DNA of 11,676 nucleotides, from the IMG/VR virus record IMGVR_UViG_2740892036_000002; one strand, given 5' to 3'. A program made the position numbers and the translations under genes. Under the pieces are notes generated by a model that did no database searches, was not told the origin of the DNA, and was given only the letters and a program-made list of their open reading frames with translations. Below are positions 2,451 to 8,134 of this stretch, one piece after another (positions within the stretch are counted from its first letter, which is position 1; the number at the start of each line of letters is the position of its first letter). This stretch comes from a virus (Duplodnaviria; Heunggongvirae; Uroviricota; Caudoviricetes).

Positions 2451-2504
2451 TGTATCTGAACGGCGCGGAATGCCGCGCCAGAACCTAATTTACAGGACAG
2501 CAAA

Positions 2505-2807
2505 ATGAGCGATAAGCAGACTGAAAAGACCATTCAACTGGATACCCCCATCATGCGTGGTAAAACTGAAATCACCGAAATTGTGCTGCGTAAACCGCAG
2601 TCCGGTGCGCTGCGCGGTACACGCCTGCAGGCCATTATGGATATGGATGTGAACGCGATGATGACCGTGATCCCCCGCATCTCCAGCCCGGCGCTGACTG
2701 CACAGGAAATTGCAGAGATGGACCCGGCAGATCTCACTGCCATGTCGGTTGAGGTTGTCACTTTTTTGTTGAAGAAGTCGGTGCTTGCCGGTTTACCGAC
2801 AGCCTGA
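2505..2807 (+). CDS. E: Tail assembly chaperone gpE (zero-frame product)
   Basis: 100-aa ORF between the tube and tape-measure genes, preceded by AGGA. It contains the slippery heptamer T-TTT-TTG at 2762-2768 near its 3' end. Confidence 0.85.
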   Translation: MSDKQTEKTIQLDTPIMRGKTEITEIVLRKPQSGALRGTRLQAIMDMDVNAMMTVIPRISSPALTAQEIAEMDPADLTAMSVEVVTFLLKKSVLAGLPTA

Positions 2808-2941
2808 CGGTTGATGATCTGGTGGCAGATATCGCCACCATTTTTCACTGGCCGCCATCCGTTACTGACGTTATGCCGCTGACCGAAGTGCTGGAATGGC
2901 GGTATAAAGCGATTCAGAGAAGCGGGGCCAACGATGAGTGA
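2505..2941 (+). CDS. E': Tail assembly chaperone gpE+E' fusion made by -1 programmed ribosomal frameshift at 2762-2768
   Basis: After a -1 slip on T_TTT_TTG (zero-frame codons ACT|TTT|TTG) the -1 frame stays open for 58 more codons (FVEEVGACRFTDSLTVDDLVADIATIFHWPPSVTDVMPLTEVLEWRYKAIQRSGANDE*) and stops at TGA 2939-2941, overlapping the T start at 2934. The predicted product is about 145 aa (P2 E+E' is about 142 aa). This is the conserved G/GT-type chaperone frameshift found in front of tape-measure genes. Confidence 0.75.
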
Positions 2942-5900
2942 TAATAACCTGCGCCTGCAGGTCATTCTTAATGCGGTTGACAAACTCACCCGCCCATTCC
3001 GTGCTGCACAGGCCAGTTCGAAAGAGCTGGCTGGCGCAATCAGAAACTCCCGTGACGCATTAAAGCAACTCAATCAGGCGGGTAACAACCTGGAAAAATT
3101 TCGCAAGCTGCAGGCCGATAACAAAAAGTTAGGCGACAGGCTGAACTATGCCAGACAGAAGGCAAATTTGCTTAGTTCTGAGCTGGAAGCGATGGAACAA
3201 CCATCACAAAGGCATCTTGTGGCTTTAGGTCGGCAAACGCTGGCAGTCCAACGCCTGGAAGAACAACAAAAATATTTGCAGAAGCAAACGGCGCTTGTGC
3301 GTGCAGAACTGTACCGGGCGGGAATTTCTGCGAAAGATGATGCGGGAGCAACTGCCCGTTTAGCCCGTGAAACATCACGTTATAACCAGGAATTGTCGAA
3401 ACAGGAGGCGCGGCTGAAGCGACTGGGGGAAGCTCAGCGCAGGATGAATGCAGCGCGTGCCAGTTATGCCCGTTCGCTGGAGGTGCGCGATCGCATCGCA
3501 GGAGCCGGAGCCACTACTACGGCTGCAGGGCTGGCAATGGGGACGCCAGTGATGGCGGCAGTAAAAAGCTATACCAGCATGGAAGATGCCATGAAAGGTG
3601 TGGCAAAGCAGGTCAATGGTCTGCGTGACGATAATGGCATCCGCACTGCACGTTTTTATGAAATGCAGGATGCCATCAAAGCTGCCAGCGAACAGTTGCC
3701 GATGGAAAACGGTGCGGTGGACTTCGCTGCACTGGTTGAAGGTGGTGCGCGTATGAACGTCGCAAACCCTGACGACAGCTGGGAAGACCAGAAACGTGAC
3801 CTGCTGGCCTTCGCCAGTACGGCAGCAAAGGCGGCAACAGCCTTTGAGCTGCCAGCGGATGAACTGTCAGAAAGTCTGGGGAAAATCGCCCAGCTCTACA
3901 AAATACCAACCCGCAATATTGAACAGCTCGGCGATGCGCTGAACTATCTGGATGATAACGCCATGTCGAAAGGGGCGGACATCATTGATGTGATGCAACG
4001 TCTGGGCGGTGTGGCTGACCGTCTGGATTATCGTAAAGCGGCGGCACTGGGTTCCACCTTTCTGACACTGGGCGCTGCGCCGGAGGTTGCAGCCAGTGCA
4101 GCAAACGCGATGGTGCGTGAATTGTCCATTGCCACCATGCAAAGCAAGAGTTTCTTTGAAGGAATGAATCTGCTGAAACTCAATCCTGAAGTGATTGAAA
4201 AGCAGATGACGAAGGATGCGATGGGAACTATCCAGCGCGTGCTGGAGAAGGTGAACGCACTGCCGCAGGACAAGCGTCTGTCTGCCATGACCATGTTGTT
4301 TGGTAAAGAGTTTGGCGATGACGCGGCGAAACTGGCAAACAACCTGCCGGAACTGCAGCGTCAGTTAAAACTGACAGCGGGCAATGATGCGCTCGGCTCC
4401 ATGCAGAAAGAATCCGACATTAACAAGGATTCACTTTCTGCGCAGTGGTTGCTGGTCAAAACCGGAGCGCAGAACACCTTCAGCAGCCTGGGCGAAACGC
4501 TGCGCCAGCCGCTGATGGATATTCTGTACACGGTGAAAAGCGTCACGGGGGCGTTGCGTCGCTGGGTGGAAGCTAACCCGGAACTGACAGGCACACTGAT
4601 GAAAGCATCGGCTGTTGTGGCTGCGGTGACCGTCGGCCTCGGCACCTTAGCGGTGGCGCTGGCTGCAGTGCTGGGGCCGCTGGCAGTGATCCGTCTGGGA
4701 TTCTCTGTGCTGGGTATCAAAACGTTACCTTCCGTTACGGCAGCAGTAACTCGAACCAGCAGCGCGTTGTCCTGGCTGGCTGGCGCACCACTGGTACTGC
4801 TGCGACGCGGGCTTGCTTCATCGGGCAACGCTGCGGGTTTACTTACTGCACCGTTGTCATCTTTGCGCCGCACGGCATCACTGACGGGAAATGTCCTGAA
4901 AACTGTAGCAGGTGCGCCGGTTGCACTTTTGCGGTCTGGATTATCCGGTTTACGTGCTGTTGCTGTGATGTTTATGAATCCTCTGGCGGTACTGCGCGGT
5001 GGACTGGTCGCCGCAGGCACGGTGCTGCGAGTACTGGCATCTGGTCCACTGGCGATGCTGCGCGTTGCCCTGTATGCCGTATCTGGTCTGTTAGGTGCTC
5101 TGCTCAGTCCGATAGGTCTTGTGGTTACTGCACTGGCGGGCGTGGCGCTGGTTGTCTGGAAATACTGGCAACCCATCACCGCATTTCTTGGTGGCGTGGT
5201 GGAAGGATTCAAAGCGGCGGCAGGTCCCGTCAGTGCAGCATTCGAACCGCTTAAGCCCGTGTTCCAGTGGATTGGCGACAAAGTACAGGCGCTGTGGGGC
5301 TGGTTTACTGATCTGCTGACGCCCGTTAAGTCGACCTCTGCCGAACTGCAGAGTGCAGCGGCAATGGGGCGGCGATTCGGGGAGGCACTGGCGGAAGGGC
5401 TGAATATGGTCATGCATCCGCTGGACTCCCTGAAATCCGGCGTTTCCTGGTTGCTGGAGAAGCTCGGCATTGTCAGTAAAGAGGCCGCAAAGGCAAAACT
5501 GCCGGAAAGCGTGACGCGTCAGCAACCTGCGACGGTGAATGCAGACGGTAAAGTGATGATGCCATCGGGTGGTTTTCCATCATGGGGATATGGCTTTGCG
5601 GGGATGTATGACAGCGGCGGCTATATCCCGCGCGGGCAGTTTGGCATCGTCGGTGAAAACGGGCCGGAAATTGTTAACGGCCCGGCAAATGTGACCAGCC
5701 GGAGAAATACAGCTGCACTGGCTGCCGTTGTTGCCGGAATGATGGGCGTTGCTGCCGCGCCTGCAGAGCTTCCACCGTTGCACCCTTTGGCACTTCCCGC
5801 GAAAGGCGGCGAAGCGATGGTGAGTCGTGCAGCCACTGTGCCGCCCGTTCAACGGATTGAGGCACCGATGCAGATCATCATTCAGACGCAGCCAGGACAA

Positions 5901-6011
5901 AGTGCGCAGGATATTGCGCGGGAGGTGGCCCGCCAGCTTGATGAACGTGAACGCAGGCTGAAGGCAAAAGCCAGGAGTAACTACAGCGATCAGGGGGGAT
6001 ACGACGCATGA
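2934..6011 (+). CDS. T: Tail tape measure protein (P2 gpT family)
   Basis: 1025-aa ORF immediately after the E/E' chaperone pair. It has a coiled-coil-like, charged N-terminal third, a central hydrophobic block with tandem roughly 22-aa repeats, and a Gly-rich C-terminal region. Position and architecture are diagnostic for a tape measure. Confidence 0.93.
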   Translation: MSDNNLRLQVILNAVDKLTRPFRAAQASSKELAGAIRNSRDALKQLNQAGNNLEKFRKLQADNKKLGDRLNYARQKANLLSSELEAMEQPSQRHLVALGRQTLAVQRLEEQQKYLQKQTALVRAELYRAGISAKDDAGATARLARETSRYNQELSKQEARLKRLGEAQRRMNAARASYARSLEVRDRIAGAGATTTAAGLAMGTPVMAAVKSYTSMEDAMKGVAKQVNGLRDDNGIRTARFYEMQDAIKAASEQLPMENGAVDFAALVEGGARMNVANPDDSWEDQKRDLLAFASTAAKAATAFELPADELSESLGKIAQLYKIPTRNIEQLGDALNYLDDNAMSKGADIIDVMQRLGGVADRLDYRKAAALGSTFLTLGAAPEVAASAANAMVRELSIATMQSKSFFEGMNLLKLNPEVIEKQMTKDAMGTIQRVLEKVNALPQDKRLSAMTMLFGKEFGDDAAKLANNLPELQRQLKLTAGNDALGSMQKESDINKDSLSAQWLLVKTGAQNTFSSLGETLRQPLMDILYTVKSVTGALRRWVEANPELTGTLMKASAVVAAVTVGLGTLAVALAAVLGPLAVIRLGFSVLGIKTLPSVTAAVTRTSSALSWLAGAPLVLLRRGLASSGNAAGLLTAPLSSLRRTASLTGNVLKTVAGAPVALLRSGLSGLRAVAVMFMNPLAVLRGGLVAAGTVLRVLASGPLAMLRVALYAVSGLLGALLSPIGLVVTALAGVALVVWKYWQPITAFLGGVVEGFKAAAGPVSAAFEPLKPVFQWIGDKVQALWGWFTDLLTPVKSTSAELQSAAAMGRRFGEALAEGLNMVMHPLDSLKSGVSWLLEKLGIVSKEAAKAKLPESVTRQQPATVNADGKVMMPSGGFPSWGYGFAGMYDSGGYIPRGQFGIVGENGPEIVNGPANVTSRRNTAALAAVVAGMMGVAAAPAELPPLHPLALPAKGGEAMVSRAATVPPVQRIEAPMQIIIQTQPGQSAQDIAREVARQLDERERRLKAKARSNYSDQGGYDA
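4785..5160 (+). repeat. Tandem degenerate ~22-codon repeats inside the tape measure gene (APLxxLRxGL...)
   Basis: The translation shows five to six successive units: APLVLLRRGLASSGNAAGLLT / APLSSLRRTASLTGNVLKTVAG / APVALLRSGLSGLRAVAVMFMN / PLAVLRGGLVAAGTVLRVLASG / PLAMLRVALYAVSGLLGALLS / PIGLVVTALAGVALVV. They are diverged at the nucleotide level. Boundaries are approximate. Confidence 0.6.
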
Positions 6012-6493
6012 TGATGGTGCTGGGATTGTACGTGTTTATGCTGCGCACCGTGCCGTATCAGGAACTGCAGTATCAACGCAGTTGGCGACATGCGGCAAAC
6101 AGCCGGGTAAACCGTCGTCCGTCCACGCAGTTTCTGGGACCGGAAAACGACATGCTGACGCTTTCCGGTGTTCTTATGCCGGAGATAACAGGCGGCAGGC
6201 TGTCGTTGCTGGCACTTGAGCAGATGGCAGAACAGGGGAAAGCATGGCCTCTGATTGAAGGCAGCGGCACGATTTACGGCATGTATGTGATTGAGGGACT
6301 GAATCAGACTAAAACGGAGTTTTTCCGCGACGGTATGCCGCGCCGGATTGAGTTCACCCTGTCGCTCAAACGGGTGGATGAATCCCTGTCCGATATGTTC
6401 GGTGATCTCAGTGCGCAGCTGAATAATCTGCAGGGAACGGCAACATCTGCCTTAAGCGATATCAGTAAAACGGTGGGAGGGCTTCTGTCGTGA
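6008..6493 (+). CDS. U: Tail protein gpU
   Basis: 161-aa ORF whose ATG overlaps the T stop (ATGA at 6008-6011). Size (P2 gpU is about 159 aa) and position after T fit gpU. Confidence 0.88.
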   Translation: MMMVLGLYVFMLRTVPYQELQYQRSWRHAANSRVNRRPSTQFLGPENDMLTLSGVLMPEITGGRLSLLALEQMAEQGKAWPLIEGSGTIYGMYVIEGLNQTKTEFFRDGMPRRIEFTLSLKRVDESLSDMFGDLSAQLNNLQGTATSALSDISKTVGGLLS

Positions 6494-7590
6494 ATTTCAG
6501 CTCTGAACTGCTTAACAAAGGCAACAAAACTCCCGCATTCAGCATCAGTATTGAGGGCAGGGATATCACCACTGTGCTGGACAACCGCCTGATTGGGCTG
6601 ACGCTGACGGATAACCGGGGATTTGAAGCGGACCAGCTTGATCTGGAACTCGACGACGCCGATGGAAAAATCGTGCTGCCGCGCCGTGGTGCGGTCATTA
6701 CGCTGGCGCTGGGCTGGAAGGGGCAGCCGCTTTTCCCGAAAGGGGCATTCACGGTGGACGAGATTGAACACACTGGCGCACCGGACCGCCTGACTATCCG
6801 GGCGCGAAGTGCTGATTTTCGGGAAACCCTGAATACCCGCCGTGAAAAATCGTGGCATAACACCACCATCGGGGAAGTGGTGAAGGAAATAGCCGCGCGG
6901 CACAAGCTGAAGATGGCACTGGGTAAAGAGCTGTCGGATAAGCCCGTGGAGCATATAGACCAGACTAATGAGAGTGACGGCAGTTTTCTGATGCGACTGG
7001 CGCGACAGTACGGTGCCATCGCGTCGGTGAAAAATGGCAATCTGTTATTCATCCGGCAGGGGCAGGGCAAAAGCGCCACTGGTAAACCACTGCCAGTGAT
7101 CACTATCACACGCAAGGACGGCGACAGTCACCGATTTACCCTGGCAGATCGCGGAGCCTACACGGGCGTAATTGCCAGCTGGTTGCATACCCGTGAACCC
7201 GCGAAGAAAGAAAGCACCACGGTGAAGCGTAAGCGCAGAACTAAGAAGCAGAAGAAAGAGCCGGAAGCGAAGCAGGGCGATTACCTGGTGGGTACGGATG
7301 AAAACGTGCTGGTACTTAATCGCACCTATGCCAACCGGGGCAACGCTGAACGGGCAGCGAAAATGCAGTGGGAACGTCTGCAACGCGGCGTTGCGTCATT
7401 CTCGCTACAACTGGCGGAAGGGCGGGCAGATCTCTACACGGAAATGCCTGTGAAGGTCAGTGGTTTTAAACAGCCGATAGATGATGCGGAATGGACCATT
7501 ACGACTCTGACACATACCGTCAGCCCGGATAACGGTTTTACGACCAGTCTGGAGCTTGAAGTGAGGATTGATGATTTCGAAATGGAATGA
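6490..7590 (+). CDS. D: Tail protein gpD (late tail gene D)
   Basis: 366-aa ORF with a GTG start overlapping the U stop (GTGA at 6490-6493), preceded by GGGAGGG at 6475-6481. It is the last tail gene before ogr, as in P2, and has a basic K/R-rich stretch (KRKRRTKKQKKEPEAK). Confidence 0.88.
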   Translation: MNFSSELLNKGNKTPAFSISIEGRDITTVLDNRLIGLTLTDNRGFEADQLDLELDDADGKIVLPRRGAVITLALGWKGQPLFPKGAFTVDEIEHTGAPDRLTIRARSADFRETLNTRREKSWHNTTIGEVVKEIAARHKLKMALGKELSDKPVEHIDQTNESDGSFLMRLARQYGAIASVKNGNLLFIRQGQGKSATGKPLPVITITRKDGDSHRFTLADRGAYTGVIASWLHTREPAKKESTTVKRKRRTKKQKKEPEAKQGDYLVGTDENVLVLNRTYANRGNAERAAKMQWERLQRGVASFSLQLAEGRADLYTEMPVKVSGFKQPIDDAEWTITTLTHTVSPDNGFTTSLELEVRIDDFEME

Positions 7591-7680
7591 TGCTTCGCAA
7601 TGGAGAACTTTTAAGTTTGCAAAATGGAATAATGCGGTATCATTATTGTGAATTTAGCAAAAATGGGGAGAACTCGAAAA

Positions 7681-7899
7681 ATGATGATTTGCCCACTGTG
7701 TGGAAGTGCCGCCCATACTCGCAGCAGTTTTCAGGTATCTTCATTGACCAAAGAGCGTTACAACCAGTGCCAGAACATTAACTGCAGCCATACTTTTGTT
7801 ACCCATGAAACTTTTGTTCGTTCGATTGCAACGCCAAAAGAGTCAAATCCGGTTCAGCCGCATCCAATGAAATCAGGACAGGTGGCGCTCTCTCTTTGA
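7681..7899 (+). CDS. ogr: Ogr/Delta-family zinc-finger late transcription activator
   Basis: 72-aa product from the ATG at 7681, with GGGGAG 10 nt upstream. It carries the C-X2-C-X22-C-X4-C motif (CPLCGSAAH...QCQNINCSHTF) characteristic of P2 Ogr, and 72 aa is the P2 Ogr length. The ORF track's longer version (7648) adds 11 N-terminal residues and cannot be excluded. Confidence 0.85.
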   Translation: MMICPLCGSAAHTRSSFQVSSLTKERYNQCQNINCSHTFVTHETFVRSIATPKESNPVQPHPMKSGQVALSL

Positions 7900-7985
7900 C
7901 GCTGCCGCCATTTTGTCGCCATCGTTAAAAAACAGTGCTTCTAACATCATGATTTTAAACAGCTTAAATTTCAGGCAACAAAAAA

Positions 7986-8022
7986 CCCATCAACCTTGAA
8001 CCGAAATGGCGGGGTTGATGGG
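7986..8022 (-). terminator. Candidate intrinsic terminator for ybjL, in the prophage-host junction
   Basis: Perfect 10-bp inverted repeat CCCATCAACC (7986-7995) / GGTTGATGGG (8013-8022) with a 17-nt loop. On the - strand it is followed directly by a T-rich tract (complement of CAACAAAAAA, 7976-7985). It lies 113 nt downstream of the ybjL stop. Confidence 0.4.
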
Positions 8023-8134
8023 CTCCACAAAATGGGGACATCAAAGAAAAGCAGTGGCACTAATTAAGACTGATGCCCTGCGGAAAAGTTCTGCGGTTGT
8101 GCAAAAAAATTTCATTTTCAGGGCAACTTCAGTT

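Follow-up and report, generated by a model that had tools for sequence, protein, structure and literature searches.

Probable −1 frameshifting in a P2-type tail assembly chaperone gene pair, E and E+E', of an Escherichia coli prophage

Genes and reading frames of the tail region

The DNA analysed here, a stretch of 11,676 nucleotides referred to as the window, belongs to a P2-like (Peduoviridae) prophage of Escherichia coli that lies beside rybB and ybjL. A Pfam scan gave the gene order sheath, tube, E, E', tape measure, U, D and ogr, and the PGAP annotation of the counterpart prophage agrees with this order. The sheath gene (753-1925, Pfam match) is followed on the plus strand by the tail tube gene (1935-2450), a homologue of P2 FII (PF04985 Phage_tube, E=9e-60) that is situated directly upstream of E. 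Its counterpart, in an E. coli prophage that is identical over a 511-bp query covering E and E' (2450-2960), was named 'phage major tail tube protein' by PGAP. Downstream of E and E' the tape measure gene T was found (2934-6011, plus strand, 1025 aa; PF10145 PhageMin_Tail, E=2e-18), together with Pfam matches for GpU (6008-6493), GpD (GPD, 6490-7590) and, after D, ogr on the plus strand within 7648-7899.

The 511-bp query showed 100% identity to several E. coli chromosomes and matched 1003 of the 5426 complete E. coli genomes. The nearest phage records were Klebsiella prophages of the 4LV2017 (Elveevirus) type, at 98-99%, and Salmonella RE-2010 (Felsduovirus) was also among them. In E. coli strain E189, ogr closes the prophage, and ybjL, ybjM, grxA, ybjC and nfsA follow directly. 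The window itself contains a full-length gene for the RybB sRNA at 7977-8055 on the minus strand (RF00110, 105 bits). Because the 3' end of this gene is 78 nt from ogr, the last prophage gene, the junction between prophage and host can be placed at about 7900-7977. Judged from this arrangement, the integration site of the phage seems to coincide with the 3' end of rybB or to adjoin it.

Two other elements were observed upstream of E. An open reading frame (ORF) at 209-646 on the plus strand matched the tail fibre assembly family PF02413, and its counterpart in the prophage identical over the 511-bp query is annotated by PGAP as an incomplete pseudogene without both termini. This may point to a degraded or mosaic tail fibre module. 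A GC-rich inverted repeat, GGCGCGGAATGCCGCGCC, is present at 2461-2479 (plus strand) in the 54-nt gap between the stop of the tube gene and the start of E. It has no T-run behind it and was not called by the terminator scan; an annotated terminator is found at the same place in a Mannheimia relative. The repeat could form an mRNA-stabilising or attenuating hairpin that sets the highly expressed sheath and tube genes apart from E-T-U-D.

Gene E occupies 2505-2807 on the plus strand and encodes the zero-frame tail assembly chaperone of 100 aa, which ends at the TGA at 2805-2807. By eye, AGGA was recognized 7 nt upstream of its ATG at 2505. Close to the 3' end of the gene the sequence TTTTTTG is found at 2762-2768 (plus strand; read by eye and checked by script). 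The E codons at this site are ACT (2760-2762), TTT (2763-2765) and TTG (2766-2768), which places the heptamer in the canonical phase for tandem slippage, X_XXY_YYZ, with TTT in the P site and TTG in the A site of a putative −1 shift. Twelve sense codons of E remain between the heptamer and the TGA at 2805-2807. The −1 frame is open from 2753 up to the TGA at 2939-2941, and the E' extension in this frame (2768-2941, plus strand) runs from the GTT at 2768 to the GAG at 2936-2938. A preliminary description of this DNA had reported T_TTT_TTG at the same position near the end of E, with 58 open −1 codons behind it. Position and phase were verified by script, and the number of sense codons is 57 when counted from GTT 2768 or 59 when counted from 2762, so that the figure of 58 lies within counting convention. 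The predicted E+E' fusion, join(2505..2768, 2768..2941) on the plus strand, comprises 88 residues in common with E and 57 residues of E', which amounts to exactly the 145 aa that had been estimated, beside the 100 aa of the zero-frame product. The −1 frame was also described correctly as ending just inside T: its TGA overlaps the T start (ATG 2934) by 8 nt, ATGAGTGA.

Homology, conservation and selection in both frames

Both parts of the predicted fusion have relatives in protein family databases. E matched PF10109 (Phage_TAC_7, 'tail assembly chaperone proteins E, or 41 or 14') with E=2.4e-18 and 66 bits, and the −1 extension alone matched PF06528 (Phage_P2_GpE) with E=4.4e-19 and 68 bits, the cut-offs of these models being 25 and 23 bits, respectively. 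PHROG tail families likewise cover both E and E': phrog_103 matches E (E=8e-44) and phrog_1756 spans residues 85-145 of the fusion, that is, the whole extension including the part that precedes a GTG codon at 2822. The comparison with P2 gpE' that had been proposed as a check of the −1-frame translation revealed 56% identity over 57/57 residues (E=6e-24, against Peduovirus P2_4B2), with SLTVDDL in E' here at the place of NLSVDDL in P2. E is 43% identical to the P2 E protein (E=3e-25, against a P2-type phage). No NCBIfam model matched E, the fusion or the 39-aa ORF that starts at GTG 2822, and a PDB sequence search with the fusion gave no match at E up to 1. The Pfam scan of the window detected only PF10109 and PF06528 for E and E', and no lambda gpG or gpT family.

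A tblastn search with the fusion retrieved 419 phage records, of which 385 cover at least 80% of it. Among the matches listed, a match in two pieces, and hence in two frames, was seen in 57/57 rows covering both E and E'. For comparison, 15 annotated phage loci and 78 loci from bacterial contigs (one genome per species) were collected, and the 89 with both parts were counted. Their hosts range from Enterobacterales to Zymomonas, with Pasteurellaceae, Vibrio, Pseudomonas, Burkholderia and Ralstonia in between, and the identity of E goes down to 35% among the loci compared. E' is in the −1 frame relative to E in 89/89 loci, and an in-phase slippery heptamer is present at the homologous position within the frame overlap in 89/89 as well, which bears out the earlier designation of the frameshift as conserved. 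The heptamer is TTTTTTG in 70 loci, TTTTTTA in 12, TTTTTTC in 3, TTTTTTT in 3 and GGGAAAG in 1. The sole exception to the T-type heptamers, G_GGA_AAG, comes from a Mannheimia phage; it too is a canonical site of ribosomal slippage and is not a homopolymer. The T start overlaps the E' stop in 73 of the 80 loci that could be scored, 57 of these having the same 8-nt overlap as the window. This fits translational coupling; such overlaps are common in phage operons.

The Ralstonia phage RSY1 (L009, NC_025115) is annotated with a single 156-aa 'tail protein' at 752-1222, in the E' frame across the whole of E. In this phage the true E frame is unbroken, as is the TTTTTTG at L009:1049, and an A-run near the E start (L009:801-807) puts the apparent ATG out of the E frame. 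The 156-aa product is artefactual and stems from a long frame that is open in this GC-rich genome.

Nucleotide diversity by codon position was determined in 24 distinct sequences that have at least 80% E identity and share the geometry of the window. Before the heptamer, diversity in the E frame was 0.069, 0.042 and 0.352 at codon positions 1, 2 and 3. After the E stop, the corresponding values in the −1 frame were 0.053, 0.016 and 0.181. The third-position diversity switches frame after the E stop, and the coding signature therefore moves into the −1 frame where the frameshift model predicts it. At the level of the aligned sequences this shows that purifying selection acts on the −1 frame after the E stop. 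An antisense ORF across E and E' (2534-3073, minus strand, 179 aa, TTG start) was rejected as a gene; since it has no Pfam match and the codon-position pattern is that of the plus strand, it is most likely a shadow ORF.

Judged within the window, a heptamer followed by an open −1 frame is not exceptional. The six tail genes have five in-phase X_XXY_YYZ heptamers between them, and behind 11% of the in-gene positions the −1 frame stays open for 57 codons or more; the chance heptamers at 4835 and 4886 in gene T have 120-137 open −1 codons behind them. The window's own statistics for the combination are not significant. Similar pairs are thus at hand for the view that a chance heptamer at 2762-2768 merely precedes a chance open frame and that neither has a biological role. 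This coincidence is already refuted, and its probability is negligible, because the −1 frame matches Pfam and PHROG families, the −1 relation and the heptamer are kept in all 89 loci, and the codon-position signature reveals purifying selection in the −1 frame. It is from these same results that the site derives its significance, with synteny as a further independent line.

The shifted frame had been said to appear in no ORF list for want of a start codon. This statement did not hold, because the start-capable GTG at 2822 opens a 39-aa ORF inside the E' frame (2822-2941, plus strand), which annotators do call. In E. coli E189, PGAP has split the pair into a 100-aa 'phage tail assembly protein' and, as a CDS of its own, a 39-aa 'GpE family phage tail protein', so that automated annotation misses the fusion, as had been foreseen. 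The 39-aa ORF is annotated 'P2 gpE-like protein' in KY271398; in most phage records E' is split off likewise or omitted, and a joined E+E' CDS was found only in hand-curated Burkholderia records such as KS14 and FLC5.

Taken at face value, the separate CDS in PGAP and in many phage records implies that E' is an independent small gene, which starts at GTG 2822, yields a free 39-aa 'GpE family' protein and makes a frameshift unnecessary. The equivalent codon is indeed a canonical start (GTG or ATG) in 69/89 relatives by alignment. However, in the other 20/89 it is ATC, ATT, ATA, GCC, TGG, GTC or CAR, whereas the heptamer is present in 89/89. No Shine-Dalgarno-like motif was seen by eye upstream of GTG 2822 (GACGGTTGATGATCTG). 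From the heptamer to the GTG, the 18 codons of the −1 frame are kept as protein, with a mean column identity of 0.60, and the phrog_1756 alignment runs across them. Moreover, P2 E+E' is reported to be made from the E start (work cited in PMC3091744). We consider an independent E' gene very unlikely; the 39-aa ORF is most likely an annotation artefact that has a false start and no independent gene status, and E' is to be read as the extension of the E+E' product.

The dual-coded overlap and candidate stimulatory elements

Between the heptamer and the E stop the C-terminal tail of E and the start of E' are encoded by the same nucleotides (2769-2807, plus strand). Diversity in this overlap was 0.02-0.08 at every codon position versus about 0.15 in the flanks, and among close relatives no other part of the locus is as conserved as the 36 nt after the heptamer (2769-2804). 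Third positions of the −1 frame had a diversity of 0.054 in the overlap versus 0.186 further on (Mann-Whitney p=0.02), and those of the E frame 0.077 in the overlap versus 0.362 (Mann-Whitney p=4e-5). Synonymous sites in 2769-2804 are three- to five-fold less variable than in either flank in close relatives. In distant relatives the E tail after the heptamer differs in both length (5-22 codons) and sequence. The conservation of 2769-2804 is in large part accounted for by dual coding.

No stimulatory RNA structure or Shine-Dalgarno-like element was demonstrated by these sequence analyses. The candidate hairpins downstream of the heptamer are weak (−4.5 to −12.1 kcal/mol) and start 6-8 nt behind it. 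They are a stem of 2775-2781 with 2788-2794, which has a 6-nt spacer and −4.5 kcal/mol, a stem of 2777-2782 with 2795-2800 in the dual-coded overlap, and an irregular stem within 2777-2808 of −12.1 kcal/mol. Folding was carried out on 82 nt and 206 nt around the site and on the 50 nt after the heptamer in 79 distinct relatives. The 82-nt fold had a z-score of −2.6. Compared with shuffled sequences, the 50-nt folds had z-scores of about −1 to −1.3 in the clade and −0.3 in distant relatives, and the predicted fold switched between alternatives across the relatives.

Covariation was assessed for two explicit hairpins in an ungapped alignment of 30 sequences with column-shuffled controls. For the first helix the observed values were reached by 63 and 302 of 500 shuffles, and for the second by 15 and 21 of 500, which is within the stated false-positive range of the tool. 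Covariation did not clearly exceed the shuffles for either helix, and the pairing potential is explained by column composition. With a modest folding z-score and covariation at shuffle level, a downstream stimulatory hairpin was rejected as a demonstrated feature. Rfam contained no frameshift element for this region, yielding only sub-threshold chance matches in 2650-3000. Upstream, GAGGU is found at 2751-2755, 6 nt before the heptamer, where it also encodes conserved E-V-V residues. Its role as a Shine-Dalgarno-like stimulator was unsupported: with a diversity of 0.148 the stretch is no more conserved than the rest of E, and it has synonymous variants in relatives.

That no stimulator was demonstrated at the site agrees with what has been reported for P2-like E+E' genes, which are described in PMC3091744 as lacking downstream hairpins. 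The low variability of 2769-2804, together with an E tail that differs in distant phages, makes it conceivable that this stretch is conserved beyond dual coding and could hold an RNA stimulator hairpin, 6-8 nt downstream of the heptamer, that is specific to the clade. We regard this as unlikely. If true, the hairpin would be an element that P2 itself is reported to lack (PMC3091744).

Further downstream, a terminator-like element lies within E' at 2820-2850 on the plus strand. It consists of a 7-bp stem (UGGUGGC/GCCACCA, −11.4 kcal/mol) with a 7-nt loop, followed by TTTTT. Its stem, composed of V-A...A-T codons, is retained within the close clade; P2-type sequences have other residues there. 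As 2820-2845 would be translated only by shifted ribosomes, it could be imagined, in a still more speculative variant, that this hairpin and U-run tie transcription of T-U-D to frameshifting.

Predicted mechanism and comparison with known systems

On the sequence anatomy of the site, the homology of both parts, the conservation of frame and heptamer and the purifying selection on the −1 frame, the region 2505-2941 very probably encodes a P2-type tail assembly chaperone pair, E and E+E', produced via a −1 frameshift. We infer the occurrence of slippage, its frequency and the roles of the two proteins as follows. Ribosomes would start at ATG 2505, and most of them would terminate at the TGA at 2805-2807 to give the 100-aa E. 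A minority would slip at U_UUU_UUG, where the P-site tRNA-Phe (on UUU) and the A-site tRNA-Leu (on UUG) would both re-pair one base back. These ribosomes would read on from GUU 2768 and end at the TGA at 2939-2941, giving the 145-aa E+E'. The examples of P2 and lambda G/GT suggest that both proteins may bind the tape measure protein T via their shared N-terminal domain, and the E' domain may recruit the tail tube protein. A fixed slip frequency would set the ratio of E to E+E', and neither protein is expected to stay in the finished tail.

The same fusion frame would arise if one nucleotide were inserted in the mRNA. If RNA polymerase were to insert a surplus U while copying the homopolymeric run, which counts 6 T here and 7 in 3 relatives, some of the mRNAs would encode E+E' in a single frame. 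Productive polymerase slippage, however, uses runs of about 8-9 or more, and six residues are short for an efficient event of this kind. In addition, the property that is conserved among the relatives is the X_XXY_YYZ phase and not the length of the run, and one relative has the non-homopolymer G_GGA_AAG. Published work on P2 also reads the event as translational (PMC3091744). Transcriptional slippage is for these reasons a highly improbable source of the fusion, and translational slippage is the reading compared below with the known systems.

In P2 the −1 frameshift that gives E and E+E' in the FETUD tail operon was described by Christie et al. (2002, J Bacteriol 184:6522; summarised in PMC3091744). 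PMC3091744, citing Christie 2002 and Xu 2004, gives TTTTTTG as the site and lengths of 91 aa for E and 142 aa for E+E', which have one start; it also reports that E+E' is produced by frameshifting and that both proteins are needed in tail assembly. Two P2-type loci of the present set (L002 and L007) gave 91 aa for E and 142 aa for the fusion by script, equal to the published values. The window has all the sequence-level features that define the P2 pair, as the preliminary description had proposed in likening it to P2 E/E'. The two share T_TTT_TTG, with its phase and its location near the 3' end of E unchanged; E' has 57 codons in both; the overlap with the T start is the same 8-nt ATGAGTRA; both parts are homologous, at the identities given above; and the order FI-FII-E-E'-T-U-D is alike. 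The window differs from P2 in the length of E (100 versus 91 aa) and of the fusion (145 versus 142 aa), E being longer here because its zero frame continues for 12 codons after the heptamer instead of 6. Furthermore, the prophage belongs to another lineage of Peduoviridae, nearest to Klebsiella phage 4LV2017 and Salmonella RE-2010. In P2 itself the frameshift is reportedly about 10% efficient, and E' is said to be essential.

The likeness to lambda G/GT is one of arrangement. Both systems have two overlapping frames behind the major tail or tube gene and ahead of the tape measure gene, the −1 slip, predicted in the window, falls near the end of the first frame, and the long product ends at the start of the tape measure gene. 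The second frame in this class has no conserved start of its own, as is the case here, where the start is absent in 20/89 loci. In contrast, the Pfam scan gave no sequence similarity to gpG or gpT, the lambda heptamer is G_GGA_AAG, unlike T_TTT_TTG here, and the tail of lambda is non-contractile, whereas that of the present phage is contractile with a sheath. In lambda the shared part is reported to bind the tape measure protein and the extension the major tail protein (PMC5009743, Figure 4 legend). The same logic is presumed for the window, with the shared domain directed to the tape measure and the extension to the tube protein. By this analogy, the feature would work like lambda G/GT and is not its relative in sequence.

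A further comparison can be made with the tau and gamma products of E. coli dnaX, for which A_AAA_AAG is accompanied by an upstream Shine-Dalgarno-like element and a downstream hairpin, and the shift depends on both stimulators. At stimulated sites of the dnaX and IS911 type, the hairpin or pseudoknot is expected 5-9 nt behind the heptamer. As in dnaX, the window would have a bacterial tandem-slippage −1 shift that gives, in a fixed ratio, two products sharing their N-terminus. Unlike in dnaX, neither a conserved upstream Shine-Dalgarno-like element nor a downstream structure supported by covariation was found here.

The conservation of the tail-chaperone frameshift across the dsDNA tailed phages was reported by Xu, Hendrix and Duda (2004, Mol Cell 16:11; reviewed in PMC5009743). 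The E/E+E' frameshift of the window is thus an ordinary, textbook feature of a common E. coli prophage and is already known, for P2 since 2002 and for tailed phages since 2004. The practical value of its recognition lies in annotation. The E-E' region of this prophage (the 511-bp query) matches about one in five complete E. coli genomes, and for this prophage and most related phage records the standard annotation has no 145-aa product. Because this product is absent from standard annotations, proteomic databases that are built on these miss the junction peptide. For the phage, the frameshift would be important because it would set the ratio of two chaperones that are required for a tail of the right length.
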